Shown piece by piece: positions 9,796 to 64,000 of a stretch of 64,000 nt of DNA (position 1 is the stretch's first letter; every line of letters starts with the position of its first letter). Origin of the DNA: an uncultured Verrucomicrobiota bacterium (GTDB lineage Bacteria > Verrucomicrobiota > Kiritimatiellia > CAIQIC01 > Lenti-01). The notes under the pieces are model-generated. The model worked only from the letters and a program-made list of their open reading frames with translations, ran no database searches and was not told the origin of the DNA. A program made the position numbers and the translations under genes. Location: assembly GCA_937860055.1 (NCBI GenBank), contig CALMBO010000028.1:21881-85880 (forward strand), in the 5' to 3' direction.

Positions 9796-9944
9796 TTTCT
9801 GCCTCTTCCTTTTAAGATTGAAAACGTTCGGAATCTACCCCAACCCCCCGGGCTTTGTAAAGCGCGCGCAAGCTTTCCGGCGGGGAAACCGCCGGAGGCA
9901 TGCACCCCCGCCGCCCATCCATGCCGTGGAAAACCCGCCGGCCG

Positions 9945-11019: not shown

Positions 11020-11030
11020 GGTCCGGTCCT

Positions 11031-11627
11031 TCAGCGGTTCTTCGGAGGCGCGGAGAACCGACCGGCGTATTCCATCAGCTCCACCTGGAAGCCGCTGATC
11101 TGCATCCGGAAGAAATAGTAGAGGCACAGCACGGGGACGGTGATCGCCAGCCCCATGATCGTGGTGGTCAGCGCCTCCCAGATGCCGTTTGCCAGCAGGG
11201 CCGGGTTGGCCACGGCCTGCGACGCGATCACCCGGAAGACCTTGGAGATGCCCATCACCGTGCCCAGCAGGCCCAGCAGGGGCGAGATCACAGAGGCCAG
11301 CCGCAGCAGGGTCATCGCCCGGTTGACCTTCCGGAAGTTCTTGTGGAACAGGAATGCCAGCTCCGCGCGCAGGTCGTCGTGGCCCCGGCACGCTTCGCGC
11401 ACGGCTTCCGAGAAGATGCGGATCAAGGGATTTCCGGCGCGGGCGCCGGCCTCCGCATCCAGCCGCGAGGGATCGCGCACCAGGCCCGCGATATGGCGGC
11501 GGAAGGCCCAGCCGATCCAGGTGAGGTAGATGGCGTTCTTCGCGCACAGGTACGCCGCGACCGCGGCGACGGCGACCAGCGCCACGCCGGAGGCGCCGAT
11601 GTAGTCGTATATCCGTTGGCAGTCCAT
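11031..11627 (-). CDS. exbB: MotA/TolQ/ExbB proton-channel protein
   Basis: LGLLGTVMGISKVF...TTIMGLAITVPVL motifs of ExbB/TolQ. Confidence 0.8.
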   Translation of the reverse strand: MDCQRIYDYIGASGVALVAVAAVAAYLCAKNAIYLTWIGWAFRRHIAGLVRDPSRLDAEAGARAGNPLIRIFSEAVREACRGHDDLRAELAFLFHKNFRKVNRAMTLLRLASVISPLLGLLGTVMGISKVFRVIASQAVANPALLANGIWEALTTTIMGLAITVPVLCLYYFFRMQISGFQVELMEYAGRFSAPPKNR

Positions 11628-11649
11628 CGAAGAAGTCTCCTTTTCCTGT

Positions 11650-12684: not shown

Positions 12685-13496
12685 CGCGGCGCCTTTTCCC
12701 ACGACAGCATCGCCCACTCGAAATCGTGCCGATAGCGCGCCGTTCCGTCCGCCCCGCGCGGCAGGCCGCGGTAGAACCTCCGCAGCCGCGCCACTTCCCT
12801 CTCCGTCAGTTCCCCCACCCGCCATCGCACGGCCCCGATGAAATCCTCCGCCGAGGCATAGCCCATCCCGCCCCGCGAACGCAGGAAATCCACGCGGACC
12901 TTCACGCCCATCTGGTAGAGGATGTTCACCGCGTAGATGTAGTCCGGCCGCGGCTCCATCTCCCGGTCGAGCAGGGCCAGGACATCCGGCCCGAGATAGC
13001 TCCCGCCGGCGTGCAGCGTCACATAGCACCGCAGGCGCGCCTTCCGGTCCATCTTCTCCAGCGCGCCCCGCAGGTCCTCCACGCCGAGGGCCCGGGAACA
13101 GATCGCGATATCCACCTTCGGCACCTTTGCCCAGGAATCGGTCCACGACAGCCGGTGCACGACGAGGTTGTCCACGCCGGCGCGCTTCCGGTGAGTCTCC
13201 AGGAACCGCAGCATCTCGGGGGAGAAATCCAGCGCATGGACCTTCCGGAGGCGCTTCGCCAGCGGAATGGCCAGGTTCCCCGTGCCGCATCCGATGTCCA
13301 GCGCCGTCTTCGCGCCCGCCAGGTCCATCCGCGCCAGGAAGGCGCGGCTGTAGTCGCTGTCGCCTTCGCCCCGGCTCCGCCGCTCCGCGCGCCGGTCCCA
13401 ATCCGCGCTCGTCCGCGAGCCGAACGACGACCGCCGGCACTGCTCCCGGTAGAGCGCGCCGAAGTCGATGTCCTGGATCAGGTCCTTGCCGAGCAT
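12681..13496 (-). CDS. class I SAM-dependent methyltransferase
   Basis: ALDIGCGTGNLAIPLA SAM-binding motif. Confidence 0.7.
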   Translation of the reverse strand: MLGKDLIQDIDFGALYREQCRRSSFGSRTSADWDRRAERRSRGEGDSDYSRAFLARMDLAGAKTALDIGCGTGNLAIPLAKRLRKVHALDFSPEMLRFLETHRKRAGVDNLVVHRLSWTDSWAKVPKVDIAICSRALGVEDLRGALEKMDRKARLRCYVTLHAGGSYLGPDVLALLDREMEPRPDYIYAVNILYQMGVKVRVDFLRSRGGMGYASAEDFIGAVRWRVGELTEREVARLRRFYRGLPRGADGTARYRHDFEWAMLSWEKAPR

Positions 13497-13509
13497 GCCC
13501 TGGGTTTCC

Positions 13510-49565: not shown

Positions 49566-51047
49566 TCAGGAATCCAGGTGCGAACGCCGGGCCCAGTCCG
49601 CCAGCAAACGCGCGCAGGCCAGCGTCGCGCCGGGCGCGCCGTAGGGCTTCGCCGATTCCAGATAGGCCGTTCCCGCGATGTCCAGATGCGCCCACGGAAC
49701 GGCTTCCGGCACGAAGTGCTTCAGGAACGCCCCCCCGGCGATGGTGCCGGCGGATCCGTCGCCCATGTTCTTCAGGTCCGCGAACTGCCCCTTGAGCATC
49801 TCGTCGTACTCGGGCCAAAGCGGCAGCTGCCAGAGGCGCTCGCCCGTGGCCTCGCCCGACAGCATCAGGTCCAGCACCAGCCGGTCGTCGTTGCCCATCA
49901 CCGCCGTGACCTCGTGCCCCAGGGCGATCACCGCCGCGCCCGTCAGGGTCGCGATGTCCACGATCGCCGCCGGCTTCTCCTCCGCCGCGAACGACAGCGC
50001 GTCGGCCAGGATCAGCCGCCCCTCCGCGTCGGTGTTCAGGATCTCGATCGTCTTCCCGTTGCGCGCCTTCACGATGTCTCCCGGCCGCGTTGCGCCGCCG
50101 CCCGGCATGTTCTCGACCGCCGGGATATACGCGACCACGGGGCGCGGCAACTTCAGGCGCGCCGCCAGCAGCACCGTCGCAAGCGCGGCCATGCCGCCGC
50201 TCTTGTCGTACTTCATCCACTCCATGTTCTTGCCCGGCTTGAGGCTGATGCCGCCCGAATCGAACATCACCGCCTTGCCCACCACCACCAGCGGCTTCAG
50301 GCCGCGCCGCCCCGCGTGGGCCAGGCGGATCAGGCACCCCGGCCGCCGGCTTCCCTGCGCCACCGCCAGCAGCGCGCCGCATTTTTCCCTGGCCAGCGCG
50401 GCCATGTCCCAGACACGGCACGAAATCCCGGCGCTCCGCGCCAGCTTCTTCGCCCGCGCCGCCAGATCCATCGGCCCCAGCTCGTTCGCCGGCAGGTTCG
50501 CCAAGTCGCGAACCTCCCGCAACGTCCCGCCCGCGATCTCCGCGCGGCGCACCGCCTCGCGCACGGCCTTCCCGGAAAGCGCCGCGCCGGCGAATTCGAA
50601 AACAAAGGAATGCTCTTTCCGGCTGGCCCGGAACGCCTCGAACACATACTCGCCCGACAGCAACCCCGCCGCCGCCAGTTCCGCCAGCTCCGCCGCATCC
50701 ATCGGGAACGCCGCGGCCGCCGGCCATTCGAACGAAGCCCGCCGCACGATCGCCGCCTTCTCCAGCGCGCGCCCCGCCGCCGCCCACGCGCGCAGCCAGC
50801 GCGCCGCGTGGAAATCCTTCTTCTTCCCGATGCCGACCAGCAGCGTCGGCAAGGACACTCCCTGCGGCCATGCCGTGGCCGCCGCCTTCCCCCTGAATTT
50901 CGCCGCCCCGATCCACGCTTCCAGCGCGCGCCGGTCCGCCGCCGGCAACGAAGACGGCGCCAGCAGCTTCCCGTCCTGCACCAGCACCGTCCGGGCGTCC
51001 GCCGCCGACGGCCGCAATCCCCACTGGAACCCGATCGACGGTCTCAT
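49566..51047 (-). CDS. pepA: leucyl aminopeptidase (M17)
   Basis: NTDAEGRLILADAL M17 signature, VGKAVMFDSGGISLKP. Start at MRPSIGF (ATG 51045-51047); the longer annotated N-terminus is low-complexity. Confidence 0.8.
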   Translation of the reverse strand: MRPSIGFQWGLRPSAADARTVLVQDGKLLAPSSLPAADRRALEAWIGAAKFRGKAAATAWPQGVSLPTLLVGIGKKKDFHAARWLRAWAAAGRALEKAAIVRRASFEWPAAAAFPMDAAELAELAAAGLLSGEYVFEAFRASRKEHSFVFEFAGAALSGKAVREAVRRAEIAGGTLREVRDLANLPANELGPMDLAARAKKLARSAGISCRVWDMAALAREKCGALLAVAQGSRRPGCLIRLAHAGRRGLKPLVVVGKAVMFDSGGISLKPGKNMEWMKYDKSGGMAALATVLLAARLKLPRPVVAYIPAVENMPGGGATRPGDIVKARNGKTIEILNTDAEGRLILADALSFAAEEKPAAIVDIATLTGAAVIALGHEVTAVMGNDDRLVLDLMLSGEATGERLWQLPLWPEYDEMLKGQFADLKNMGDGSAGTIAGGAFLKHFVPEAVPWAHLDIAGTAYLESAKPYGAPGATLACARLLADWARRSHLDS

Positions 51048-51382
51048 TGGCACTCCGGCGGCAGCTTGGCGCGCGCCGCGTCGTCGGCCGACAGATCGTT
51101 CACGGCGAAACCGGCATGGCGCACGACCACCTCGATGTTCCGGCGCCCCAGGCGCACATTGTCGTAGTCCACCCATGCCTTCCGCGCCGCCAGATCGATG
51201 CGGATGTCCCGGATGGCCCCTTCGCCCAGGCGGGCGATGGCGTCCCTCACCGTCTCCGCGCAGGCCTCGGTCTTCATCGCGGGGATGTCGAGTTCGATCG
51301 TCGAGACCGTGTTGCGGAAGCACCCCGCCCCCAGCGCCAGCAGCGCCACCACTCCGATCCAACCAGCTGTCGTCCTGTTCAT
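51044..51382 (-). CDS. small lipoprotein with HMA-like fold (single Cys)
   Basis: Lipoprotein signal ...LLALGAGC; IELDIPAMKTEACAETV resembles a heavy-metal-associated motif but lacks the second Cys. Confidence 0.35.
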   Translation of the reverse strand: MNRTTAGWIGVVALLALGAGCFRNTVSTIELDIPAMKTEACAETVRDAIARLGEGAIRDIRIDLAARKAWVDYDNVRLGRRNIEVVVRHAGFAVNDLSADDAARAKLPPECQ

Positions 51383-51468
51383 GTTCGCCTCTCCAGAAGA
51401 TTGGGCAAACTATTCCACCCCGCCGCCCCCCTGTCAACGCTCCCCGCCGGGATTCCGGCAACCGTCCC

Positions 51469-52938
51469 TTATTCCCGGTCCAGCGCGACCTGCCGGCCGA
51501 TCAGTTCCGCCGCCAGCCGCGCGCGGGCCGCCAACTCCGGATGCGCCGAAGCCGCCGGATCCTCCGCGAAGGCGCGGTACAGCTCCAGCGCCTCCTCGCG
51601 GCGCCCCTGTTTCCACACCGCCAGCGCCAGGTTCAGCCGCGTGTTCGGCGTGCCGGGTTCCCGCGCCAGGATTTCCCGGTAGGCGGCCTCTGCATCCGCA
51701 AACCGCTCCAGATGCATCCATTCTCCCGCCTGCCGATAGCGGAAATAGGTGGCGTCCCCGCGACGGAGGGCCTGGCCATACACCGCCGCCGCCCGGGCAT
51801 GCTCTCCCTCTTCGCACGCCAGGCGCGCCTTTCGCTCCAGCTCGGCGCCATCTCCCGCACCCGGCATTTCCCGGTGGAAGAACGCCCATCCCAGCAGCGA
51901 AATCAGCAGCAGTCCGCCGCAGACGAGCGATCCCCGGACGATGGCCCTTCCATGCGCATCCAGCCAGCGCACGGCCGGCGGGATCCCCTCCGCATACGGC
52001 GAACGGACCGCCTCGGCCCCCAGGGTCAGCACGGTCCAGGCGGCCTGTTCCACCGCCGTCGCGCCCGCCGGCAGGCCGGCCCGGTGCATCCGGGCCACCA
52101 CGCTGTTGTGAGGCGTGCGAAGCAGCAACGCGAAAAACAGCGCCCACGTCCGCGCCGGCCAGGCCAGGGGAGCCATCTCCGCCGCGCGCGACCGCAACCC
52201 CTCGGACATCGTCTCCGTCCGCCCTTCCCATATCAGGGGGAAAAATCCGCACGGCGAGGGATCCGGCACGTTCTCCCCTCCCGCATCGTAGCGGTGGAAT
52301 GCGGAGGCTTCCTCGTTCCAGAAGCTGTCCTTCAGCCAGTTGTCCAGTTCGCGCTGCTCGCTTTCGGCCGCGTCCAGCGCCCGGCCGAACCGGTCATTCC
52401 CCTTCGCCAGCCGGTCCAGCGCCGAAGCTTCGTTCGACAACAGCACCGCCAGATCCACCGTGAAGCGGCCGGGCGCGAATTCCGCGGGGAAAAGGGCCTC
52501 CGCCGCCGATCCCCAGAGCGGCAAGCCCGTCCCCCTCGCATCGTAGCGGTCGAGTTCGCGCTCCACGCACCGCGCCAACACCGGCAGGATGCGTTCCACA
52601 AATACCTCGGGCTCCGGGTGCGTTTCCGCCACCTGTTCCGCCAGCTGGCAGACCACCGGACAGGACGGCGAGAGATTGCCCTCCCCGTCCGCCGTCGCCA
52701 GCCACGCCTCGATCAGGCGACCCGCCATCTCGGGATCCGCCAAGGCCCATGCCGCGATCGCCAGCGGGAGCTCCGCCGCCGCCGAAGCCGCGTCCACCGG
52801 CAACGCCGCCAGCGCGGAGGCCGCGTTTCGTTTCGCCTTCGCGGGCAAGGTCTCCAGCCAGGTCCGGCCTTTCGGACCTTCCGGCGGCGCTTGTTCGGCA
52901 TTCGGATTCATCGCGGCCAGTATATCCATCCGCCACAT
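51469..52938 (-). CDS. TPR-repeat protein with N-terminal uncharacterised domain and one TM
   Basis: C-terminal TPR repeats (AAVYGQALRRGDATYFRYRQAGEWMHLERFADAEAAYREILAREPG...). Start uncertain (52938, 52929 or 52911). Confidence 0.45.
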   Translation of the reverse strand: MWRMDILAAMNPNAEQAPPEGPKGRTWLETLPAKAKRNAASALAALPVDAASAAAELPLAIAAWALADPEMAGRLIEAWLATADGEGNLSPSCPVVCQLAEQVAETHPEPEVFVERILPVLARCVERELDRYDARGTGLPLWGSAAEALFPAEFAPGRFTVDLAVLLSNEASALDRLAKGNDRFGRALDAAESEQRELDNWLKDSFWNEEASAFHRYDAGGENVPDPSPCGFFPLIWEGRTETMSEGLRSRAAEMAPLAWPARTWALFFALLLRTPHNSVVARMHRAGLPAGATAVEQAAWTVLTLGAEAVRSPYAEGIPPAVRWLDAHGRAIVRGSLVCGGLLLISLLGWAFFHREMPGAGDGAELERKARLACEEGEHARAAAVYGQALRRGDATYFRYRQAGEWMHLERFADAEAAYREILAREPGTPNTRLNLALAVWKQGRREEALELYRAFAEDPAASAHPELAARARLAAELIGRQVALDRE

Positions 52939-52948
52939 CTTCCACCAA

Positions 52949-54271
52949 ATGAAAAAGTTGCTTCCCCCTCTCGCCGCCGCTACACTTCCGCCCATGAAAA
53001 TTTCCTCTTCCACGGGCACGGTCCTGCTCGCGCTGATCGCGATGGCGACTTCCTCCGCCACCGCCGAAACGCGGATGCAGGTCGCCGCCGCTTCCACCCC
53101 CATCTATGCGCAGGCCTCCGCCGGCGCGCAGCAGGTCGGCTCCGCCTCCTCCGGCGAAATCCTCTTCGTCTCGCGCACGGAAGGCGATTGGGCCGCCATC
53201 TCGCCACCCGACCGCCTCGATCTCTGGCTCAACAAGGATTTCATCGAGGGCAACCGCGTCGTCGCCAGGAGCATCCAGGTCCGCTCCGGCCCCGGCATCG
53301 AATATGAAATCGTCGGAACCCTCGAGCGCGGCGCCGCCGTCATGCCCCGCGGCGAAGAAGGCGACTGGTGCAAGATCGCCCCTCCCTCCTCCACCACCCT
53401 GTGGGTCAAGAAGGGCGATCTTTCCGAAGTCCGCACGCACACCACGCCCATCCAGGAAGTCGCCCCGGTTCCGGAGCCGCCCAAACCGGCGCCGGCGCCG
53501 GCACCGGCCGCCGCCCCGGCGCCCCAGCCCGCCCCTCCGGCCATCGAACCGCTTCCCCCGCCGGAGGTCAAACCTTCACCGGCCGCCTCCGTTCCTGAAC
53601 CTCAACCCCCCCCGGTGGCCGAGCCCCCCCCTCCGGCTCCCGCCCCCAAGGTCGCTCCCTCCACGCCAAAGGCCCCCTCCGCCAAACCGGTCGCAGAGCC
53701 GAAGCCGGCTCCGGCGGCTTCCGTTCCCTCCACGCCCGCCAGGCCTGTCCCTCCCCGCACCGTCGCGCCTGCCGCGCCGGCGCTGAAGCCCGCCACGGCC
53801 CTCCCCGCCCCGGCGCCCCGTCCTTCTTCGACGAACGCCATCGCACCCGCCAAGCGCCCTGCCGCCAAGCCGTCCGTTTCCACCTCCATCCCCACCACGC
53901 CCAGCGCCGTCATCTCGCAGAAGTCCAGGAACGTCGAGGTCAAGGTCAACCAGGCCTATGTCGACGATCTCGACTTGCTGGACCAGCCCAACCAAGGCAA
54001 GGCCGTCCAGGTCGAAGGAGAACTCCGCAACGCCCCCTTCATGGCCGCCTCCCCGTCCCGCTACCGCCTGCAAACCCAGGACGAAAACGGCATCCTCGAA
54101 ATGATCTGCCACATCCATGGCGATTCCGAAGCACTCCGCCCATACGTCGGACGGACCGTCTCCATCCGCGGGCGCGAATACTGGGTGGAGAACAGCGACA
54201 TGCCCGTCGTCGTCGTCGGCCAGATCGTGCCTCTCGCCCCCGCCGACGAAGACGAACCGGTGCTGTTCTGA
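52949..54271 (+). CDS. secreted tandem SH3b-domain protein with Pro/Ala-rich linker
   Basis: Signal peptide; two SH3_3-like segments (EGDWAAISPPDRLDLWLNKDFIEG; EGDWCKIAPPSSTTLWVKKGDL); ~200-aa PAPAP/PEPP low-complexity linker. Confidence 0.5.
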   Translation: MKKLLPPLAAATLPPMKISSSTGTVLLALIAMATSSATAETRMQVAAASTPIYAQASAGAQQVGSASSGEILFVSRTEGDWAAISPPDRLDLWLNKDFIEGNRVVARSIQVRSGPGIEYEIVGTLERGAAVMPRGEEGDWCKIAPPSSTTLWVKKGDLSEVRTHTTPIQEVAPVPEPPKPAPAPAPAAAPAPQPAPPAIEPLPPPEVKPSPAASVPEPQPPPVAEPPPPAPAPKVAPSTPKAPSAKPVAEPKPAPAASVPSTPARPVPPRTVAPAAPALKPATALPAPAPRPSSTNAIAPAKRPAAKPSVSTSIPTTPSAVISQKSRNVEVKVNQAYVDDLDLLDQPNQGKAVQVEGELRNAPFMAASPSRYRLQTQDENGILEMICHIHGDSEALRPYVGRTVSIRGREYWVENSDMPVVVVGQIVPLAPADEDEPVLF

Positions 54272-54897
54272 TGCCGCCTCCCGCCCCCTCCCCCGGACAT
54301 CCTCGCGCCATCGGACTGCTGGGCGGCACCTTCAATCCCGTCCACGACGGCCATCTGTCCATCGCCGGCGAAGCCCTGCGCCTCTTCGGCCTCGATGCCG
54401 TCTGGTTCATCCCCTGCGCCGTGCCGCCCCACAAGCCCGCCTGCCACCTCGCGTCCAACGAAGACCGCCTCGCCATGGTCCGCCTGGCCATCGCCGGCGA
54501 GCCCCGCTTTAGCGCCCTCCCCATCGAATTCGAACGCCCCGGGAAGTCCTACACCGTCGACACCATCCGCGCCCTCCAGTCCCTCCATCCCGGCGCGGGC
54601 TTCGTCTTCATCATCGGCGCCGACACCCTCCCCGAGCTCCACACCTGGCACAAGCCCCTCGAACTTCTTTCCGCCGTCCGCATCGTCACCCTCGCCCGGC
54701 CCGGCTTCGTCCCCGATCCCGGCGCCCTGCACCTCCCGCCCCCCTGGCCCGGAAAGCTCCTTTCCGACCTCCGCACCGGCAACCCCCTCGATGTCTCCTC
54801 CCGCGACATCCGCGCAAAAATCGCCGCCGGCCAGCCCGTTTCCCTTGTCCCCGAACCCGTCCTCCGCTACATTCAGGAACATAAATTATACCGATGA
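54271..54897 (+). CDS. nadD: nicotinate-nucleotide adenylyltransferase
   Basis: GLLGGTFNPVHDGH (HxGH nucleotidyltransferase motif), ~208 aa. Confidence 0.85.
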   Translation: MPPPAPSPGHPRAIGLLGGTFNPVHDGHLSIAGEALRLFGLDAVWFIPCAVPPHKPACHLASNEDRLAMVRLAIAGEPRFSALPIEFERPGKSYTVDTIRALQSLHPGAGFVFIIGADTLPELHTWHKPLELLSAVRIVTLARPGFVPDPGALHLPPPWPGKLLSDLRTGNPLDVSSRDIRAKIAAGQPVSLVPEPVLRYIQEHKLYR

Positions 54898-55364
54898 AAA
54901 ACTCCAAATCCCCCGCCCCCAGGTCCGCCGCAAAGAAATCCGCGTCCCGGAAATCCCCCGCGAAAAAGGCCGTGTCCAGGAAAACGCCGGCCAAAAAGCC
55001 CGCGCGCGCTCCGCACTCCGCCGACGCCCTCCGGACCCGCGTGGAGAAGATCCGCGCCATCCTCGAATCCAAGAAGGGCGAGAACATCGTCGTCATGCAT
55101 GTGGCCAAGGTTTCCAGCGTCACCGACTACATGATCCTCTGCACCGGCCTGAACAACCCCCACCTGCGCGCCCTGGCCGACGAAGTCGCCAAGCAGCTCC
55201 GGCTGGAAACCCCTCCCGTCGCCGCCCATCGCCGCGCCGGCTCCGTCGAAAGCGAATGGCTCGTTCTCGACTACTTCGATTTCGTCGTCCATCTCTTCAC
55301 CCCCCAGATGCGCGCCTACTACGCCCTCGAACAGCTCTGGAAGGATGCCCCCATCGTCCAGTAG
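54894..55364 (+). CDS. rsfS: ribosome silencing factor RsfS (Iojap) with Lys/Ala-rich N-terminal extension
   Basis: ...ENIVVMHVAKVSSVTDYMILCTGLNNPHLRALADEV...WLVLDYFDFVVHLFTPQMRAYYALEQLW. Conserved nadD-rsfS gene order. Confidence 0.8.
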   Translation: MKNSKSPAPRSAAKKSASRKSPAKKAVSRKTPAKKPARAPHSADALRTRVEKIRAILESKKGENIVVMHVAKVSSVTDYMILCTGLNNPHLRALADEVAKQLRLETPPVAAHRRAGSVESEWLVLDYFDFVVHLFTPQMRAYYALEQLWKDAPIVQ

Positions 55365-55424
55365 CCGCTCCGCGGCCCCCTCTGCGGGAGGGCGCCGCAT
55401 GAACCACGGCCGCGAAAGGCCCGC

Positions 55425-56387
55425 ATGAACAGGATCTCGCTGGACGAAAACCGGATCGACGCCTTCGCCCGGCATCTGCGCGGCGCCGGAAACGCCAGGC
55501 CGTTCGACTTCTGCTCCCCCAGCGAAGGGTTCATCTATCCGGAACGCGGCCGCCCCGGCGTCCTCGAAACCTTCTTCTTCGCCTGCGCCCACCAGTTCGG
55601 CTTCTGGACCCTCGATGGCAACCGCTGGGCCCGGCCCATGGTCGCCCGCCTCGACGGACGCGACCTCAAGGGATCCGACTTCCTCTTCCGCGCCACCACC
55701 CGCGCGGGGCAGAAGGATCCGCACGTCTTCTCCCCGGCTTCGCTGGCGGCCATGCCGGATGCCGGACTCGACGCCCTGTTCCACGACGATGCCGGCCGGA
55801 ACCCCCTGCCCATGTGGACCGAACATCTCGAGCTCATCCGCGGCTATGCCCGGTGGTTCACCTCCCGGGACCTCGCCCCCGCCGATCTTCTCCGCCGCGC
55901 CGCCGCCGAACCCAAGCCGCTGTACGCGCTGCTCTCGGCCCTCGCCGGAATCCCCGGCTACGCGGAAGACCCGCTCCAGAAAAAGGCCATGCTGCTCGCC
56001 ATCGTGCTGGAAAACCGCCCCGAGCATTTCCTCGAAGTCTCCGATCCGGATTCGGCCGTCCCCATCATCGACTACCACCTCCAGCGCAGCGCCCTCCGCA
56101 CCGGCCTCATCCGCATCGAGGAGGCCTCCCTCCGGAAAAAGATCGAGGCCCGCACGCTCCTCGGCGCCCCGGAGGAGGCCGCCATACGCGCCGCCACCTA
56201 TCGCGCCATCGAAAAGCTCATCGCGCGTTCCGGGCTCTCCGCCGCCGCCGTGGACTGGTTCTTCTTCCAGAACCGGACCCGGTGCCCCGAAACGGCCGAG
56301 CCCGATTGCCCCGCCTGCCCCGTGCAGGCCCTCTGCGCCCGCCAAACCCGCCTCTTCCAGCCCGTCTACCGCACCACCGCCTATTGA
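55425..56387 (+). CDS. hypothetical protein (possible queuosine-salvage DUF2419-like; Cys-rich C-terminus)
   Basis: 320 aa; ...FFFQNRTRCPETAEPDCPACPVQALC; family assignment tentative. Confidence 0.35.
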   Translation: MNRISLDENRIDAFARHLRGAGNARPFDFCSPSEGFIYPERGRPGVLETFFFACAHQFGFWTLDGNRWARPMVARLDGRDLKGSDFLFRATTRAGQKDPHVFSPASLAAMPDAGLDALFHDDAGRNPLPMWTEHLELIRGYARWFTSRDLAPADLLRRAAAEPKPLYALLSALAGIPGYAEDPLQKKAMLLAIVLENRPEHFLEVSDPDSAVPIIDYHLQRSALRTGLIRIEEASLRKKIEARTLLGAPEEAAIRAATYRAIEKLIARSGLSAAAVDWFFFQNRTRCPETAEPDCPACPVQALCARQTRLFQPVYRTTAY

Positions 56388-56404
56388 TCCGCGGAAAGCC
56401 CGCC

Positions 56405-58015
56405 TCAGCGCGCGAGGCTGATCCAGACGACGCGGAATCCCTCGAGGATCTGGCGGGCCTCCTCGAGATAGAGCCGCGCCACCTCCCGGTTGTTCACCAC
56501 CACCATCAGGTCGTGCGAGAGGACAGAGGTGTTGTACCAGTTGAAGGAACCATCGAGGACGATCTGCTCGTCGATGACGCACTGCTTGGAATGGATGGGC
56601 GAATACGGCACGGCGCGGTCGTGGACGCCATAGACGAGCGCAACGGACAGCCCCGCGTCGCGGAGGCGCCGCACGGCCGGCAGCATCGTCCGCTGCAGCT
56701 CGTCGGACATGCTGCGCTCCTTTGCCGGGTCGCCCTCCCATGCGAGATGGCCGTTCAGGATCACGCGCACGTAGACGCCCCGGTTCTTCGCCTGGATCAG
56801 CGCATCGATCACGCTGTCGCCATGCTCCCCCCTCAGCTCGTTGACCAGGAACAGGCACAGGTGGATCGAATGCCGCGCCCGCGAGATCTCCCCGAGGATC
56901 GCCTGGTGCGGACGGTAGTAGCGGCCGTTCAACATCGCGGTGCGGCCGAAGGTGTACAGCAGGTTGAACGGCGCGAACGGATCGATCCCGTAGCGCTGGA
57001 TCACCCCGCCGCGGCAGGACTGGAAGATGTTGTCCAGCAGCCGGCACATGCCGTGGGAGCGGAACGTCATGCCCGATTCCCAGTTGCTGCCCCACCGGTC
57101 GAACGTGATGTTGAAGGAACCCACGATGGCATCCTCGTCGCCGAAGACAATGAATTTGTTGTGCATGTCCGTCGCCACCTCGGCCAGGGGGTCGCGCGTC
57201 GTGCAGACCTCGCCCAGCAGCTCGATCCCCGACCGCTTCAGGTCGAGGTAGTTGGAACTGTTGGTCAGCGTCATCTTCCGCCAGTCCACGATGACCTGCA
57301 CCGGCACCCCGCGGCGGTGCGCGTGGACCAGGTGCCGGATGAAATCCCCGTCGTCCACGCAATCCACGCAGACCTTGATGGCGTGGGGGCGCGCCGGATC
57401 CGCCTGGCGGCGCCAGATCATCGTGTCGATCATGTCGTGGATGTAGCGCTTGGGATGGTAGGGATGCCACGCCTGCCCCTTCGTGAACTTGGGGGTCAGG
57501 CCCAGCGATTCGAAATGGTGGTTCATCCAGTCCACGTCGCGCTGGAGCTGCCCGGCGTCCACCTCGTGCGTGCGGTACGGGTTCGGCGTGGCCCACTGCT
57601 CCGTGACGTGCCGCCGCACCTCCCCCTCGTTCCGGAATTCAGGCCCGTCCATGAAGATGTACTCGAAGCGCGACGGGATGGAGCGGAACTGGTGGTGCAG
57701 GATGTAGGAGAACTTCACGCACGTCACGCGGCCCTGGTGCATCGACTGGGGATGGATGAAGAAATCGCGCGTCTCGCGGTGGTGCCGGTCCCAGTCCCCG
57801 CCGCACGGATCCGTATGCGCCAGGTATTGCTCGAAGGTGCCGTCCTCGTGGAACACCTTGAGGACGACCTTGATGTTCATCTCCGCGCCCCAGTCCACCC
57901 GGAAGCGGATGCGCCCCCAGCGCAGGTAGAACAGCTCCTTGAACTCGTTCCGGCGCGGATAGAGCGGCCCCATCCAGGCGTCGGTCGGCGCGGCGTATTG
58001 TTCGGCAAACTCCAT
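56405..58015 (-). CDS. phospholipase D-family protein (two HxK(x)4D motifs)
   Basis: MHNKFIVFGDEDAIVGSFN and IHSKQCVIDEQIVLDGSFNW. Confidence 0.7.
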   Translation of the reverse strand: MEFAEQYAAPTDAWMGPLYPRRNEFKELFYLRWGRIRFRVDWGAEMNIKVVLKVFHEDGTFEQYLAHTDPCGGDWDRHHRETRDFFIHPQSMHQGRVTCVKFSYILHHQFRSIPSRFEYIFMDGPEFRNEGEVRRHVTEQWATPNPYRTHEVDAGQLQRDVDWMNHHFESLGLTPKFTKGQAWHPYHPKRYIHDMIDTMIWRRQADPARPHAIKVCVDCVDDGDFIRHLVHAHRRGVPVQVIVDWRKMTLTNSSNYLDLKRSGIELLGEVCTTRDPLAEVATDMHNKFIVFGDEDAIVGSFNITFDRWGSNWESGMTFRSHGMCRLLDNIFQSCRGGVIQRYGIDPFAPFNLLYTFGRTAMLNGRYYRPHQAILGEISRARHSIHLCLFLVNELRGEHGDSVIDALIQAKNRGVYVRVILNGHLAWEGDPAKERSMSDELQRTMLPAVRRLRDAGLSVALVYGVHDRAVPYSPIHSKQCVIDEQIVLDGSFNWYNTSVLSHDLMVVVNNREVARLYLEEARQILEGFRVVWISLAR

Positions 58016-58024
58016 CGCGCCCCC

Positions 58025-59536
58025 CTACCGCAGCTCGAATTCCACCAGATAGCCCGTGTGGTCGGACACGCGCCCGTAGCGGTTCGCCGTGAACAGCTCC
58101 TCCGCCCAGATCGCCCGCAGCCGGCTGCCCCGCTTGAGCCACAGGTAGTCGATGCGCCCGTCCTGCGCCAGCAGCCGCATCGCGTCGCCCTGCCGTTCGC
58201 GGAACACCTTCTGGAACGTGCGCGGCGAAACGATCTTCAGATACTGGTCCTCGAATCCGCCCGCGTCCACGATGTGCCGGTAGGCCTCGCTGCCCGCCGC
58301 GACGTTGAAATCGCCGCACACCAGCGTGGCGGTCGCCTCGTCCGTGTGCTTTTCGTCCGCCCACCGCTCCAGGCGCTCGAACTGCGGATAGAACCCGTCG
58401 CTCGGCCAGCTCAGGTGCGCGCTGAACACGTTCACCAGCCCGATGTACGGCACGCGCACCTGCGCCATCACGATCTTGCGCGAGTGGATGTCGTAGGGGT
58501 CCCGGCTGTCGGACACGTAGCCCGAATCGACATAGGCGAAAGGATGCCGGCTCAGGATCGCGACGCCTTCGCGGTAGCGGTCGAAGCCGAGGTGCGACCA
58601 GTCCGTGTGCAGATGGTACGGCACCGACAGATGGCCCTGGATGATGCGCGCGGCGTTCGATGCCCAGTCGCCCGCCCCGCCGTTCCAGTTCTCTCCCACT
58701 TCCTGCAGGCAGACGAGATCGATGTTCTGCTCCCGGATCGCCCGCGCCACCTGCTCGAACTTCCGGTGCGGATCCTCCTCCTGGTAGGTGTGCAGGTTCA
58801 GCGTCAGCGCCTTCAGCGTGCCGCGGCGCAGGCGGTAGTTTCGCCCGCCGTGGTTGTCCCAGAAGACCCCCCGCTTCGTCCGGCATTCGACCGCGTACTC
58901 CAGCCGGTAGGCGTGCGGAATCGGGATGCGCCCCGCCCACACCCCCCACCCGTAGCGGTTGGGATTCCGCGCGTTGCTCCCCACGCTCAGGTCCCAGTGG
59001 TTGTGCCGGAAATAGGCGTGCGCCGCATGCGACGTGACCCACCCGTCCTCCGTCCAGTGGATCGCGACGGCCTCCGGCTCCAGCTCCTGCCGCACCGCCA
59101 CCTCCACGGGCAGCGAGACCATCCCCGCCGGCAGCCCCGGATCGCACCCGATCGCCTGCACCGCCGCCGGATCGAAAACAATCACGCCGGAATCCGCATC
59201 CGAACGGTAGTTGCCGCCGAAGCGGCTGTCCCAGTGCTTCTCCCCTTCCCGCTCCATGCACGCCGCGAATTCGATGTTTCCCGGAATCGCCGACTCCATC
59301 GTCAACGGCACGGAAACCTCCGCCGTCCACAGCTCCAGACCCTCCCCCGCCTCGCAGCGGAATTCCGCCGGCGCCGCCCGCCATTCGCGGTCCTCCCCGC
59401 ACCAATGAACCGAAACCCGCTTGCCGAAGCCGATGTTGCGGACGCGCGCCGCGAACGAAATCTCCTGGAAGGTTCCGTTCACCGTCCGGGAAATGATGTT
59501 TTTCACGTAGATCAGCTGGATCGCCGGCATCGCCAT
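58025..59536 (-). CDS. carbohydrate-binding module (CBM20/21-like) fused to endonuclease/exonuclease/phosphatase (EEP) domain
   Basis: N-terminal starch-binding-like beta-sandwich (VSVHWCGEDREW...HWDSRFGGNYR...AIHWTEDGW); C-terminal EEP motifs (LTLNLHTYQE...VCLQEV...LVCGDFN...SDHTGY). Confidence 0.55.
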   Translation of the reverse strand: MAMPAIQLIYVKNIISRTVNGTFQEISFAARVRNIGFGKRVSVHWCGEDREWRAAPAEFRCEAGEGLELWTAEVSVPLTMESAIPGNIEFAACMEREGEKHWDSRFGGNYRSDADSGVIVFDPAAVQAIGCDPGLPAGMVSLPVEVAVRQELEPEAVAIHWTEDGWVTSHAAHAYFRHNHWDLSVGSNARNPNRYGWGVWAGRIPIPHAYRLEYAVECRTKRGVFWDNHGGRNYRLRRGTLKALTLNLHTYQEEDPHRKFEQVARAIREQNIDLVCLQEVGENWNGGAGDWASNAARIIQGHLSVPYHLHTDWSHLGFDRYREGVAILSRHPFAYVDSGYVSDSRDPYDIHSRKIVMAQVRVPYIGLVNVFSAHLSWPSDGFYPQFERLERWADEKHTDEATATLVCGDFNVAAGSEAYRHIVDAGGFEDQYLKIVSPRTFQKVFRERQGDAMRLLAQDGRIDYLWLKRGSRLRAIWAEELFTANRYGRVSDHTGYLVEFELR

Positions 59537-59639
59537 ACGGGGGGAGACCTTAACTGAAAAACCCGGCGCGCGCGAAAGTTTTTTCCCGCGGAAGCGAAAA
59601 TCCGCTATCTTCTCCTGCCATATCGAACGGAGGACCTCC

Positions 59640-60542
59640 ATGAAGAATCCGATCCTGATCCGCCTCGGCCTCCTGGCCGCGCTCCTGGCGCTCGCTTCCG
59701 GCTGCGCCACCACGGACTTCGTCACCGGCCAGCCCGTCCAGAACATCTACAGCCTCGACGAGGATGTCCAGCTCGGCCAGGATTTCTACAAGGAAACCAT
59801 CGCCGAACTGAAGAAGGAAAAGGCGCCCATCGACCAGGATCCCGTCCGCGTCGCCCTCGTGAAGGACGTGACCGCCCACATCGCGGCCGTCGCCAACATC
59901 ACCAACCTCCCCTACCAGGTCACCTATGTAGGCGATCCCGGGATGGTCAACGCCTTCGCCTTCCCCGGCGGAAACATCATGGTCTTCGAAGGCCTCTGGG
60001 ACCCGAAGGAGGGCCTCGTCCAGACCGTGGACGAACTGGCCGCCGTCGTCGCCCACGAGATCGCCCACGTCAACTGCCGCCATTCCACCGAGGCCATGAC
60101 GCGCGAGATGCTGCCCAACCTCATCCTCGCCGGCGGCATGGTCTATGCGTCGATCGAGGAGGACGAGGATCTCCAGCTCCTGTTCGGCGGCCTCATGCTC
60201 GTGCACGACGGCCTCATCGTCACCAAGTATTCCCGCGTGGACGAGCTGGAAGCCGACCGCGTCGGCATGATGTACATGGCCAGGGCCGGCTACGATCCCG
60301 CCGCCGCCCCCCGCGTCTGGGAGCGCCTGGCCGGCGCCAGCGACAACCAGGTCGAAAAGGTCCTCAGCATCTTCTCCACCCACCCGCGCGACTTCAAGCG
60401 CACGCAGGAGCTGCGCAAGCACCTCCCCGAAGCCCAGGCCCTCTACGAAGCCGCCCCCGTCAAGCGCAACGGCTCCAAAAAGCTTTCCGACCTCCCCCCC
60501 CTCCAGAAATCAAAACCCGCCGCCGACGCAGCCAAAAAGTAA
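59640..60542 (+). CDS. M48-family zinc metallopeptidase lipoprotein
   Basis: Lipoprotein signal LLALASGCATT; HEIAHVNCRH zinc motif; stop TAA at 60540-60542 abuts the first (degenerate) CRISPR repeat. Confidence 0.75.
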   Translation: MKNPILIRLGLLAALLALASGCATTDFVTGQPVQNIYSLDEDVQLGQDFYKETIAELKKEKAPIDQDPVRVALVKDVTAHIAAVANITNLPYQVTYVGDPGMVNAFAFPGGNIMVFEGLWDPKEGLVQTVDELAAVVAHEIAHVNCRHSTEAMTREMLPNLILAGGMVYASIEEDEDLQLLFGGLMLVHDGLIVTKYSRVDELEADRVGMMYMARAGYDPAAAPRVWERLAGASDNQVEKVLSIFSTHPRDFKRTQELRKHLPEAQALYEAAPVKRNGSKKLSDLPPLQKSKPAADAAKK

Positions 60543-61835
60543 GTCCCCGGAGATTTGGAATCCAGCGAGTGGAACTGCCCCGCAGCATTCTCGCAGGCGC
60601 TGGATCATCGCCGCCTCAACATGGTTTGAAATCCAGCGAGTGGAACACCTGGTGGGCGGCGCGACTCCCGCACCTGGCTCCGCCTCAACATGGTTTGAAA
60701 TCCAGCGAGTGGAACCCGTTCCGGTGGCGTGCTGGCCCTTGGAGGTGCTCCGCCTCAACATGGTTTGAAATCCAGCGAGTGGAACTTCTCCACGCCGGCC
60801 GCCTTGAAGATCCGCAGAACCGCCTCAACATGGTTTGAAATCCAGCGAGTGGAACAGGCATGGAGGAGGGCGAGGGTGCCAGGATGGAGCCGCCTCAACA
60901 TGGTTTGAAATCCAGCGAGTGGAACACCCAACCCCAGCGGAGGGGCACTTATCAAACTGCCGCCTCAACATGGTTTGAAATCCAGCGAGTGGAACTTTCG
61001 TGCGGAGTCTGTACGAAGATGATTCCTGCCCGCCTCAACATGGTTTGAAATCCAGCGAGTGGAACAAGGTGGTCGCCCCGGCCGCCGAATTGCTGTAGAT
61101 CCGCCTCAACATGGTTTGAAATCCAGCGAGTGGAACCTGGATGGCTTGCTGGGCAACAAACCATGCCGCCCGCCTCAACATGGTTTGAAATCCAGCGAGT
61201 GGAACCTGCACCCTGGGAAGTCTGCGACTTCCTACACGCCCGCCTCAACATGGTTTGAAATCCAGCGAGTGGAACCGCTTGCAGGCCGGGCCTTCGTAGG
61301 TCCCGGAATACCGCCTCAACATGGTTTGAAATCCAGCGAGTGGAACCCAGGGGCCCAAGACGACCGAGACCGAGGGGAACCGCCTCAACATGGTTTGAAA
61401 TCCAGCGAGTGGAACATCATTCGACGGGGAGATGGGGGAATGGTTCGACCGCCTCAACATGGTTTGAAATCCAGCGAGTGGAACACCGGTGAAGCTCCAG
61501 GCCGTCCGGACCTATCTGCCGCCTCAACATGGTTTGAAATCCAGCGAGTGGAACCGTTCACCGTGTCCTTCGCCTTAATTGCTTCCATCCGCCTCAACAT
61601 GGTTTGAAATCCAGCGAGTGGAACCAGCTTTCCCTTGACGCGAAGGATTGCATCTGGACCGCCTCAACATGGTTTGAAATCCAGCGAGTGGAACCACCCT
61701 CATCGCCCGTGCGTCGGGGTCCTTTTGCCCGCCTCAACATGGTTTGAAATCCAGCGAGTGGAACGGGCTCGGTGTGCTTCAAGTGCAGTCGAAGGCAGGC
61801 CGCCTCAACATGGTTTGAAATCCAGCGAGTGGAAC
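60540..61835. CRISPR. CRISPR array: 19 repeats (36 bp, CCGCCTCAACATGGTTTGAAATCCAGCGAGTGGAAC on + strand), 18 spacers of 33-35 bp
   Basis: Repeats start at 60611, 60680, 60750, 60820, 60890, 60960, 61030, 61101, 61170, 61240, 61311, 61380, 61449, 61519, 61589, 61659, 61729 and 61800, all identical. One degenerate terminal copy at 60540-60575 (5' half diverged). No other repeats beyond 61835. Confidence 0.95.
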
Positions 61836-61999
61836 TGTCACAAACAAAACCCAAGTCTGCTCAATTAGTTAAAGATGCGCCTGCGAGCGCGCCAGACAAA
61901 CTGCGTTTCGGCATGGTCGGGCAAACCCCATTTAGCTGCGCAGTCGCCTTGGATTCATTATACTGCGAGAGCCCCTCAGCGAATCCCGAGGCAATGCCG
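61836..61999. promoter_or_regulatory. putative CRISPR leader (AT-richer segment adjacent to the intact-repeat end of the array)
   Basis: tgtcacaaacaaaacccaagtctgctcaattagttaaagatgcgcc... immediately flanks the last perfect repeat. The opposite array end has a degenerate repeat directly abutting a gene stop codon, so this side is the likely leader. Confidence 0.4.
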
Positions 62000-62043
62000 C
62001 ACTCGCTGGATTTCAAACAGCTGCTTTTCCAATGGCGGAGGAA
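62000..62043. ncRNA. candidate tracrRNA element: 19-nt anti-repeat plus adjacent 7-bp hairpin
   Basis: 62000-62018 CACTCGCTGGATTTCAAAC is the exact reverse complement of repeat segment GTTTGAAATCCAGCGAGTG. With G-U pairs the duplex extends to ~23 bp, reaching repeat nt 1 in minus-strand sense. Followed by hairpin CTTTTCC-aatggcgga-GGAAAAG (62021-62043). Transcript ends and strand not determinable from sequence. Confidence 0.5.
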
Positions 62044-62100
62044 AAGTGGTCATGGCCCTATAGGCGAGAGCATTGGAACAAAATGTGCCGCAAAAGTAAA

Positions 62101-62391
62101 TCAGATTATGGTGACCCGCGCGTGTTGGGCATAAGGGATGCCGAGGGCTTCGATGGACAAGCTGCCGTCTGCATCCTTCGCGCCGAGGGTGATGAATAGC
62201 ACCTGGTCTTCGGTGTGGTGGATGATTCCGTCCATGGCCGATCTCATTTCCTGCAGCCGCAGCGGGTCCAGCAGGCACTCAAAAACCGAGAATTGAAGGC
62301 GATAGCCAAATCCTTCGGCAATGCGGGCCACACCCCGGAGCCGCTTGGGATCAGCGATGTCGTAACTGACGATATAGCGCCGCTGGTTCAT
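62101..62391 (-). CDS. cas2: CRISPR-associated endoribonuclease Cas2
   Basis: MNQRRYIVSYDIADPKRLRGVARIAEGFGYRLQFSVFECLLDP..., the canonical Cas2 N-terminus. ATGA overlap with the cas4-cas1 stop (62388-62391). Confidence 0.85.
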   Translation of the reverse strand: MNQRRYIVSYDIADPKRLRGVARIAEGFGYRLQFSVFECLLDPLRLQEMRSAMDGIIHHTEDQVLFITLGAKDADGSLSIEALGIPYAQHARVTII

Positions 62392-64000
62392 CGGGTCGTG
62401 AAGCCGTAGTACCGGCCGGCCTCCCCGCGCAAAACGCGCCATAACTGCCGGACCTGCACCTCAAGCATGCGCCGATAGGTCATCTTGTATTTGAACTGCG
62501 GGTGGGAAACCTCCGTGTCCATCCGCCGAAAATAGGCCTCCCAGAAAGCCCGCCGCCCGGTCTCATCCAAGAAAACGCCTTTGGAACTGAATACGAAATC
62601 CTTTTCGTCCAATTCGTGCCGGTTGAGCAAGCTGATGGCCACACTGTCCGCGATCAGCGGGCGAAACTCCTCCATTAGATCCAATGCCAACGCTGGGCGG
62701 CCATAACGCGGCTGGTGGAAGAATCCGAGGAACGGATCCAGCCCGACGGCATGGCAGATGCCGGCCAATTCCTTGGCCAACATGCTGTAGCCCAGCGAAA
62801 GCAAGGCATTCACCGGATCGCGCGGGGGGCGACGATTGCGGGCCGAAAAATCGAAAGCGTGGCCGGCCGCCTTCAGCATGCCCGCGAAATTGCCGAAATA
62901 GGTGGCGGCCGCGCTCCCTTCCAAACCTCGGACCTCATCCAGCGATGTCGCATGCTCCGTCTGGTCGCGCAACCGCTTCAGTTCCTCGGCGTCCGCCGTT
63001 TCCGGATTCCCGTTCCGCATCAACATGACCCGTTGGTTGTGGATTTTCGCGCGAATGATTTCCCGCGTTAGCTCCAGCCGGATGTCTTCGCGCTCGAACA
63101 GGCGATATTGCCCGCGGCGCGCTTCCGTTCCGGAAGCTCCAAGCCCTTGCAATAGGCCCAGAAATCTCCCCGCTGGCGAGAAGTAGGCCACTGGAATGTC
63201 CGCTTCCAACAGCTGTTGCACGGCCTGTTCCGAAATCTGCACGGCACCGTACAAGTACACTTGTTTCAGTTGGCCCAGTGCCAGGTTGCCCACTCTTTCA
63301 TCCTTCAGCCACACTTCCACGTTGCCGCCGCGAATTCCGATCCGGGCACCCGGCTTCTGAACCACCAGCACTTCCCCTTCGTCGTTGTCGGGCCGGGGCG
63401 GGCGCTCGATTTCCGGCGGACGTTCGCCAGTTGTTTTCCAATAGGTCGACTCTTCAGGGAGACAGACCGGATATAGCGAGCAATACAGGCATCGCGGATC
63501 GCCCACCAACGGTTCAGGAATGCTCGTTCCAGCCGCCACGCGACGCGCCTCCGCCAGAACGGTCCGGCACCGATCCAGCAATTCCGCAGCCAAAGGTACT
63601 TCCACGCGCCGTTTGTCCGCCCCGTAATAGATCCAGCCGCGAGCCGCCACGCGCCCCTGTTCGGCCAGCAAAAGAGCCTGCGCAGCGATTTGGATGGCAT
63701 CCGCCTCCTTGGCCATCCGCTCGCCGGCATCGTTTCGGGCGGCCGACCCCTTTTTGTAGTCTACCAGTTCCACTCCCTGCCCGGTGGCTTCCGCCAAATC
63801 CACCACGCCGACCAACCCCAGCGCCTCGCTGGAAAGTTCCAAGCTTTTCAGGGTAATACCCGCCTCCAAGACATCGGGCATGTTCTCTTTGATCTGGCTG
63901 GGCACGTCCACGTTGCGATGCATGGCGGAGCCGGCGACCGTGTCCGCGTTCTCCACGAAAACGTTTTCCACCCATTGGAAGTAGAACAAGCGCGGACAAT
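62388..64000 (-). CDS. cas4-cas1: Cas4-Cas1 fusion protein (partial; N-terminus beyond window end)
   Basis: N-terminal RecB-type nuclease motifs (GVVDLAE...VELVDYKKG, QIAAQALL) and C-terminal Cas4 Cys cluster CLYCSLYPVC. Then a Cas1 domain (GNVEVWLKDERV..., RNRRPPRDPVNALLSLGYSML, DPFLGFFHQPRYGRPALALDLMEEFRPLIAD). The frame remains open to position 64000 (upstream residues ...CPRL), so the gene is truncated by the window. Confidence 0.85.
   Translation of the reverse strand, partial: CPRLFYFQWVENVFVENADTVAGSAMHRNVDVPSQIKENMPDVLEAGITLKSLELSSEALGLVGVVDLAEATGQGVELVDYKKGSAARNDAGERMAKEADAIQIAAQALLLAEQGRVAARGWIYYGADKRRVEVPLAAELLDRCRTVLAEARRVAAGTSIPEPLVGDPRCLYCSLYPVCLPEESTYWKTTGERPPEIERPPRPDNDEGEVLVVQKPGARIGIRGGNVEVWLKDERVGNLALGQLKQVYLYGAVQISEQAVQQLLEADIPVAYFSPAGRFLGLLQGLGASGTEARRGQYRLFEREDIRLELTREIIRAKIHNQRVMLMRNGNPETADAEELKRLRDQTEHATSLDEVRGLEGSAAATYFGNFAGMLKAAGHAFDFSARNRRPPRDPVNALLSLGYSMLAKELAGICHAVGLDPFLGFFHQPRYGRPALALDLMEEFRPLIADSVAISLLNRHELDEKDFVFSSKGVFLDETGRRAFWEAYFRRMDTEVSHPQFKYKMTYRRMLEVQVRQLWRVLRGEAGRYYGFTTR

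Follow-up and report, generated by a model that had tools for sequence, protein, structure and literature searches.

A tracrRNA candidate and a large Cas12b in a probable complete type V-B CRISPR-Cas locus of an uncultured Verrucomicrobiota bacterium

The window analysed here, a 64,000-nucleotide stretch of DNA, very probably holds at its right-hand end, and continues beyond it, a complete type V-B CRISPR-Cas locus on the minus strand, made up of cas12b, cas4-cas1, cas2, a tracrRNA, a leader and an 18-spacer array (Table 1). An earlier note on this DNA had proposed a class 2, tracrRNA-dependent locus, and both the Cas12b and a conserved, covarying tracrRNA support that proposal. Its suggestion that the combination may be undescribed is unsupported because the layout is the canonical one: Cas12b together with a Cas4/1 fusion, Cas2 and a tracrRNA is the standard, textbook V-B arrangement (PMC9419969, PMC6546382).

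Table 1. Features of the locus, in window coordinates unless stated otherwise
Feature	Position	Strand	Basis or remark
Degenerate terminal (leader-distal) repeat	60540..60575	-	23/36 match; first 17 nt in crRNA sense identical
CRISPR array, 18 perfect 36-nt repeats and 18 spacers	60576..61835	-	Strand from tracrRNA analysis
Leader	61836..61964	-	52% G+C; carries invariant motif and TATAAT
tracrRNA candidate	61965..62069	-	Covariance model, covariation, RNAduplex; transcript ends putative
tracrRNA closing hairpin arms	62006-62000 and 61971-61965	-	
Anti-repeat core, 19 nt	62000..62018	-	Exact complement of repeat positions 5-23, crRNA sense
tracrRNA stem 2	62046-62040, pairing with 62030-24	-	
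tracrRNA hairpin loop UCCGCCAUU	62039-62031	-	9 nt
tracrRNA small 5' hairpin	62065-62055	-	
cas2, 96 aa	62101..62391	-	Pfam PF09827, 4.9e-18; TIGR01573
cas4-cas1 fusion, cut by window edge	62388..64000	-	Cas_Cas4, PDDEXK_1 and Cas_Cas1 domains
cas12b, 1358 aa	Extended 64076-68152 (L087:14437-18513), outside window	-	NCBIfam and Pfam

Effector and adaptation genes

The effector gene lies past the window edge, and we reached it through a public 558-kb contig (L087) whose positions 1-14361 match window positions 49640-64000 with 0 mismatches. On this contig cas12b begins 76 bases beyond the edge, three bases upstream of cas4-cas1, which bears out the earlier expectation of a Cas12b directly upstream of the fusion gene beyond 64000. 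In the profile searches that the note had proposed for the extended contig, the 1358-aa product matched the NCBIfam Cas12b equivalog model NF033949 at 716.9 bits (cut-off 150) over model positions 1-1179 of 1253, and Pfam C2c1_RuvC-like matches it as well. Similarity to solved Cas12b proteins by phmmer is mainly in the RuvC region, and a homologue that is 42% identical has already been named Cas12b by NCBI. The three RuvC motifs (VD752LGQR, LE1101DLS and QAD1231LNAA) can be aligned to the catalytic regions of the Bth and Ch Cas12b proteins, and by this alignment D752, E1101 and D1231 are intact. No HNH domain appears in the Pfam record of the extended contig or in the NCBIfam search. Nor is there a cas9 near the locus, as a type II system would have; the only large gene is the one for Cas12b.

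The adaptation module that the note had described, cas2 plus a Cas4-Cas1 fusion, is confirmed by Pfam and NCBIfam domains. Cas4 (PD-(D/E)XK) and Cas1 domains share one frame in the open reading frame that runs from 62388 to the window end, and the complete gene, which starts at extended coordinate 64073, encodes 561 aa. For cas2, an open reading frame of 113 aa gave no match in an exact look-up; the real start is at 62391, and the 96-aa product read from there has been recorded, in exact form, from 15 contigs. A Cas4/1 fusion together with Cas2 is the adaptation module of type V-B, and both components of that definition are present here (PMC9419969). As the note also stated, no effector gene separates the adaptation genes from the array, which an M48 peptidase gene flanks on the left.

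Array and leader

The 36-nt repeat CCGCCTCAACATGGTTTGAAATCCAGCGAGTGGAAC occurs in 18 mismatch-free copies between 60611 and 61835, where shuffled sequences give an expectation of 0. The array is thus real, but what had been called a perfect 19-repeat array (60540-61835) consists of 18 perfect copies and one degenerate copy, which agrees with the repeat at 23 of 36 bases, including 17 identical bases at its 5' end in the crRNA sense. This degenerate copy sits at the end of the array opposite cas2, where the stop codon of the M48 peptidase gene adjoins it. Read in the crRNA (minus) sense, the array has a perfect repeat ahead of each spacer, and the 18 spacers are 33-35 nt long.

Between the array and the tracrRNA candidate lies a leader that is poorer in G+C than the window as a whole (66%). 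At 61890-61882 (-) it carries the motif GCGCTCGCA and, at 61962-61957 (-), a TATAAT. The CTCGC core of the motif is the same in all 38 of the related leaders compared and might be a new integration signal. A scan for consensus promoters and terminators scored no consensus sigma-70 promoter in the leader or elsewhere in 60300-62500, and it found one terminator-like site in that interval, fewer than shuffling would lead one to expect.

A conserved tracrRNA candidate

As the earlier note had reported, the repeat core recurs between the array and cas2 as an exact inverted copy of 19 nt. Outside the array there is no other such copy. An equivalent anti-repeat is present in the cas2-array spacer region of related loci, and across 52 of them this region carries a conserved putative tracrRNA on the cas-gene strand, in which a covarying hairpin with a CCGCC loop is followed by the long anti-repeat. 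Some related loci also hold scattered, low-scoring alternative anti-repeat matches, which are due to chance.

Compensatory changes affect six of the seven pairs of the hairpin, and RNAalifold recovers the hairpins independently. A covariance model trained on 47 distant relatives, from which the window, L001 and L002 were excluded, has its best match at 62069-61995 (-), with 49.5 bits and E=3.2e-10; the runner-up stands at E=0.15. The loop CCGCC at 62038-62034 is complementary to GGCGG, the last five bases at the 3' end of the repeat. Only two loci (L040 and L072) have repeats ending in GACGG, and in both the loop reads CCGTC instead. With both hybrid regions included, RNAduplex gives -45.6 kcal/mol for the tracrRNA with the repeat; in the window the anti-repeat extends no further than repeat position 23, and 8 nt lie between it and the GGCGG duplex. 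The tracrRNA belonging to a type V-B system is thus identified here as a candidate, by sequence and covariation, with putative ends at 61965 and 62069. Rfam gave no match at gathering score over the whole window and nothing relevant at E<=10 in 60400-62500.

Alternative readings

The genes of a V-B locus might have been kept while acquisition or interference was lost, but we consider such a decaying or silent locus unlikely. Spacer content is the same in every sample recovered, and no spacer found a match, and no PAM emerged, in any sequence set searched: protospacers of the window array among phages and plasmids stayed at chance level (best E about 0.3), six window spacers had no protospacer in IMG/VR, and searches were likewise empty or at chance level for one spacer plus the repeat against JGI metagenomes, for the arrays of two relatives from the Akkermansiaceae against phages, and for 564 family spacers against all fetched loci. 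However, the samples appear to be a single strain, and viruses of this uncultured lineage are barely sampled. With all arrays identical, and with the array collapsed to one repeat in Logan contigs, the array comparison was uninformative on the spacer-acquiring end. Against decay stand three intact cas open reading frames with catalytic motifs, 18 repeats that are all perfect, and a tracrRNA candidate whose whole length fits the family model.

Because known Cas12b repeats have ...CAC at their end, we weighed seriously the possibility that the same V-B system makes its guides from the plus strand, with a repeat ending in ...GAGUGGAAC and an array read from the M48 side towards cas2. A G-G-A-A-C repeat end would loosely resemble GGCAC in Aac and GACAC in Ch (PMC12204704), read-through is conceivable from the plus-strand M48 gene, which stops about 10 nt before the array, and one recurrent mismatch of the long duplex in relatives becomes G:U on that strand (75 cells). 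The conserved hairpin decides the matter. On the cas-sense strand it holds 27 G:U cells and 0 A:C cells; on the plus strand those 27 become A:C mismatches, with none in the reverse direction, and the proportion of paired hairpin cells falls from 98.1% to 85.7%. The third helix shows the same G:U bias towards the cas-sense strand, and in the long duplex the wobble asymmetry is only moderate (138 versus 75). Topology also argues against plus-strand guides: the CCGCC/GGCGG contact would involve the spacer-distal end of the repeat, unlike in every solved Cas12b guide, and the degenerate repeat would become promoter-proximal. The far flank of the array is not conserved among relatives and so offers no conserved promoter there. 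We therefore rejected this arrangement, on G:U asymmetry and topology, as very improbable. Because of the 27-to-0 asymmetry we infer that tracrRNA and crRNA are both encoded on the minus (cas-gene) strand, and the crRNA-sense repeat is therefore GTTCCACTCGCTGGATTTCAAACCATGTTGAGGCGG (GTTCC...GAGGCGG) rather than one ending in ...GTGGAAC. The earlier note, in likening a (+)-sense end ...GTGGAAC to Cas12b repeats, had argued from the wrong strand, as covariation and the G:U asymmetry indicate.

A type I-G system in which the anti-repeat is a coincidence can be practically dismissed on gene content: NCBIfam does place the full Cas4-Cas1 fusion under cas4g_cas1g (639 bits, above cut-off), but there is no cas3, cas8, cas7 or cas5/6 either in the 10 kb upstream (cas12b, then Zincin_1-family, queuosine-synthesis, peptidase S11/beta-lactamase and SAM synthetase genes) or in the roughly 12 kb on the other side (housekeeping genes), the multi-subunit Cascade/cas3 operon that the earlier note had named as evidence against its own reading was looked for upstream and not found, and in relatives the anti-repeat shows both conservation and covariation. 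The Cas4 domain of V-B systems is closest to that of type I-G (PMC9419969), and the NCBIfam name 'Cas4g/Cas1g' alone does not indicate type I-G.

Proposed mechanism

In the minus-strand V-B locus that we favor, Cas4/1-Cas2 would insert new spacers of about 34 nt at the cas2-proximal end of the array, whose transcription would proceed from the leader and share the orientation of the cas genes. Each repeat is predicted to hybridize with the tracrRNA at two separate places: positions ~5-23 (up to 3-30 in relatives) would pair with the 3' anti-repeat, and GGCGG, adjoining the spacer, with CCGCC in the hairpin loop. Processing of the long duplex would probably yield a crRNA of the form 5'-repeat tag-spacer-3', and Cas12b, guided by the dual RNA, would use its single RuvC site to cut double-stranded invader DNA next to a PAM.

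Relatives and outlook

A cas12b neighbor accompanies 70 of the 80 closest Cas4-Cas1 loci, mostly from Verrucomicrobiota, and one is also found in the two nearest relatives, whose Cas4-Cas1 is 83% and 76% identical. It is possible, if somewhat doubtful, that the Cas12b proteins of about 1350-1500 aa from Verrucomicrobiota and their neighbors, the present one included, form an uncharacterized V-B subclade with a distinct and more compact guide. In such a subclade, the spacer-proximal end of the repeat would dock in the 9-nt hairpin loop UCCGCCAUU and the anti-repeat would have an unusual length of 19-28 bp; PAM and working temperature, too, might differ from those of the thermophilic Cas12b enzymes in use.

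For basic biology the locus matters little, being one more Cas12b system of canonical layout. What it offers is a testable guide-RNA design, consisting of a tracrRNA scaffold and a repeat tag, for a large, apparently mesophilic and uncharacterized Cas12b clade. In addition, the tracrRNA covariance model could be used to annotate such loci, which fall outside the coverage of Rfam.

Comparison with known systems

The prototype of type V-B is AacCas12b (C2c1) of Alicyclobacillus acidoterrestris, whose system shares with the present one cas12b, the cas4/1 fusion, cas2, a tracrRNA, a 36-nt repeat and spacers of about 34-35 nt. The modal spacer length stated in PMC9419969 is 35. The effector here is some 230 aa longer than AacCas12b (1358 versus 1130 aa), and phmmer similarity between them is confined to the surroundings of RuvC (E about 1e-10). 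At 19 bp exact, and as many as 28 bp in relatives, the anti-repeat far exceeds that of the prototype, and the repeat ends in GGCGG rather than GGCAC. The hosts differ too, a thermophilic Firmicute in the one case and a high-G+C uncultured bacterium of the Verrucomicrobiota/Lentisphaerota group in the other.

The adaptation module is also like that of type I-G (formerly I-U), for example Cas4/1 of Geobacter sulfurreducens, in that the fusion passes the Cas4g/Cas1g cut-off. It differs in that type I effector genes are absent and that, in 70 of 80 genomes, this clade of fusions goes with cas12b.

Among solved structures the best match is ChCas12b from Candidatus Hydrogenedentes (PDB 9KLN; E=2e-18; PMC12204704), which is also large (1496 aa) and lies, like the Cas12b described here, outside the Bacillus/Alicyclobacillus clade. 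A 5' T-rich PAM (TTN) characterizes type V-B, and that of ChCas12b has been measured as TTN. In its guide, R:AR duplex 2, formed by the last 5 nt of the repeat, sits within a tracrRNA stem and the anti-repeat follows directly (PMC12204704), which is the topology that we predict here, although the repeat and tracrRNA sequences are unrelated. The enclosing stem in ChCas12b holds an extra hairpin (stem 3) and linkers, whereas here there would be a plain 9-nt hairpin loop, and the two duplexes, contiguous in solved Cas12b guides, would be separated by 8 nt. Overall, the guide that we predict would be a more compact version of the two-duplex architecture known from the structures of AacCas12b and ChCas12b.

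A type V-B locus across the window edge

The window ends in a canonical type V-B locus from an uncultured high-G+C bacterium of the Verrucomicrobiota/Lentisphaerota group. All parts of the class 2-like locus that the earlier note described in the last 3.5 kb are present: array, anti-repeat, cas2, Cas4-Cas1 fusion and M48 flank. Looking up the exact Cas2 and M48 peptidase sequences recovered a 558-kb ENA contig (L081, L087), on which L087 positions 1-14361 align to window 49640-64000 without a mismatch or a gap. Extending past 64000 along this contig and searching the next ORF with profiles, as the note had proposed, bore out its prediction of a Cas12b effector just past the edge. The 1358-aa product scores 716.9 bits on the NCBIfam Cas12b equivalog model (cut-off 150; model positions 1-1179 of 1253) and also matches Pfam C2c1_RuvC-like. 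Its top solved-structure matches are all Cas12b (ChCas12b 9KLN, 2e-18; BthCas12b 5WTI, 4e-15; AacCas12b, ~1e-10 to 1e-11), and all three RuvC motifs are intact (VD752LGQR, LE1101DLS, QAD1231LNAA). Clustered at 90% identity, the exact protein stands alone, and its record carries no name.

Features of the locus and of the wider window (extended coordinates continue the window numbering past 64000 on L087)
Feature	Position	Strand	Remarks
Palindromic motif TTTTCCACGCAATGGAAAA	15928-16011		three tandem copies, 31-nt period
M48 peptidase gene			left flank of array
Terminator-like hairpin and T-run	60519-60532	minus	just beyond the array's distal end
Degenerate 19th repeat	60540-60575		23/36 bases match
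Perfect repeats, 36-nt unit CCGCCTCAACATGGTTTGAAATCCAGCGAGTGGAAC	60611-61835		n=18, 0 mismatches
Leader motif GCGCTCGCA	61890-61882	minus	~47 nt upstream of first repeat
Covariance-model match (putative tracrRNA)	62069-61995	minus	49.5 bits, E=3.2e-10
Anti-repeat, 19-nt core GTTTGAAATCCAGCGAGTG	62000-62018		inverted, one extra copy
cas2	62101-62391	minus
Cas4-Cas1 fusion ORF	62388-window edge	minus	Cas4 and Cas1 domains in a single polypeptide; full gene 561 aa (L087:12749-14434)
cas12b	64076-68152 (extended)	minus	1358 aa; 3 bases upstream of cas4-cas1 on L087

The adaptation module by itself would point to another subtype, as the fusion scores 639 bits on NCBIfam 'Cas4g/Cas1g' (type I-G), clearing the curated cut-off of 560. 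Because the V-B and I-G fusions are close kin (PMC9419969), this name reflects the shared ancestry of the module, not the system type, and automatic annotation would mislabel the subtype. Among the genes flanking the locus on either side, in the window and the 558-kb contig, there is no cas3, Cascade or cas9; the upstream Cascade/cas3 operon that the note had named as counting against its reading is thus absent, and housekeeping genes lie further upstream of cas12b and likewise on the far side of the array.

Scanning the Cas4-Cas1 fusion against one genome per species yielded 80 loci, mainly from Verrucomicrobiota metagenome-assembled genomes. In the two nearest (Cas4-Cas1 83% and 76% identical), an NCBIfam Cas12b of 1355-1357 aa lies directly upstream, and when the window's Cas12b is used as a tblastn query, 70 of the 80 loci show a homologue beside cas4-cas1; most of the remaining loci have too little sequence on that side. 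Searching at the protein level brought up at least 456 homologues 1350-1500 aa long, and NCBI gives one of these, 42% identical along its entire length, the name 'type V CRISPR-associated protein Cas12b [Verrucomicrobiota bacterium]'. The suggestion that the combination might be undescribed is therefore not supported; only mildly new is the family-wide tracrRNA model, described below, for this large Verrucomicrobial Cas12b clade.

Array and leader

The array is real, with one correction to the 19 perfect repeats first reported: exact matching, for which chance predicts none, counts 18, and the 19th is degenerate. Together they enclose 18 spacers of 33-35 nt, in agreement with a period of ~70 nt from Tandem Repeats Finder. 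Read in crRNA sense, a perfect repeat precedes each spacer and the decayed repeat marks the leader-distal end. Array content is the same in all samples of the window's strain. Seven contigs of this strain from Logan assemblies (SRR5468104-8; L083, L084, L086, L089-L092) carry a single repeat between cas2 and the M48 gene, which is assembler collapse of the 18-repeat array and no genuine deletion. Searches of the array against GenBank phages and PLSDB plasmids, of six of its spacers against IMG/VR and of one against JGI metagenomes gave no protospacer.

The leader motif GCGCTCGCA, whose CTCGC core is invariant, recurs at the equivalent position in every related leader (38 loci) and is also the 3' arm of a conserved hairpin directly after the anti-repeat; possible roles are an integration anchor or a processing or promoter element. 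The terminator-like hairpin, within the 3' end of the M48 gene, could terminate the pre-crRNA, although sites of this kind are no commoner than in shuffles. A consensus promoter and terminator scan returned nothing informative. Elsewhere in the window, the tandem TTTTCCACGCAATGGAAAA copies, apparently between convergent ORFs, resemble a triple operator or a group of hairpins.

A conserved candidate tracrRNA and its predicted strand

Nearly all related array-bearing loci can be aligned across the 250-300 nt that separate cas2 from the array, and a diagnostic loop motif occurs in 52 of the related loci. In cas sense, the conserved elements begin with a small G+C hairpin and continue with ACCGACCAC, a 7-bp stem with loop UCCGCCAUU and its other arm, then CA, an anti-repeat to the cognate repeat and a hairpin closed by GCGAG.../...CUCGC. 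Compensatory changes occur at 6 of the 7 stem pairs. Where the repeat ends in GGCGG, the loop sequence CCGCC complements those last five bases; the only two loci with GACGG at the repeat end (L040, L072) have CCGTC in the loop instead. Anti-repeat pairing spans repeat positions 3-30 at its fullest and 5-23 in the window. For two Akkermansiaceae loci, the aligned region was taken from upstream of the array. In two distant relatives from this family (metagenome-assembled genomes; L073:1232-4136, L075:2872-5486), array and predicted tracrRNA are found upstream of cas12b, not downstream of cas2; their repeats end in AUGGCGG and the loop motif is retained.

A covariance model built from 47 relatives, excluding the window and two related loci (L001, L002), finds a single significant match in the 64-kb window (runner-up E=0.15), and RNAduplex pairs the window's predicted tracrRNA with the repeat at -45.6 kcal/mol, engaging the 19-bp duplex as well as the CCGCC:GGCGG contact. 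No Rfam family matches.

Base-pairing patterns indicate the strand. Stem cells pair in 98.1% of cases on the cas-sense strand versus 85.7% when scored on the opposite strand, and distinct stem sequences hold 27 G:U and 0 A:C pairs in cas sense, a bias from which the tracrRNA is predicted to be made from the cas-gene strand, the window's minus. A third helix, recovered independently by RNAalifold, shows a matching bias, and wobble pairs in the long anti-repeat duplex favour the same strand (138 versus 75). The anti-repeat copies the repeat in inverted orientation, so crRNA and tracrRNA would come from one strand, both encoded on minus, and the crRNA-sense repeat would therefore be GTTCCACTCGCTGGATTTCAAACCATGTTGAGGCGG. 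The note likened the plus-strand end of the repeat to that of Cas12b repeats, but the resemblance of GGAAC to GGCAC and GACAC would be coincidental, resting on the wrong strand.

Mechanism and comparison with solved guides

Gene set, intact catalytic motifs, conserved covarying tracrRNA and array polarity are read from the sequence. By analogy with the family, Cas4/1-Cas2 would acquire spacers at the cas2-proximal repeat, transcription would be co-directional, guide RNA processing would depend on the duplex, and RuvC would cut DNA in a PAM-dependent manner.

In ChCas12b, stem 2 of the tracrRNA encloses the segment that pairs with the repeat's final five bases, and the stem's 3' arm continues directly into the anti-repeat (PMC12204704); the AacCas12b guide is organised alike (PMC6546382). 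The window's predicted RNA shares this topology but would be simpler, with the partner segment forming the loop of a plain hairpin, and its two hybrid regions on the repeat lie 8 nt apart, against near-contiguity in many relatives.
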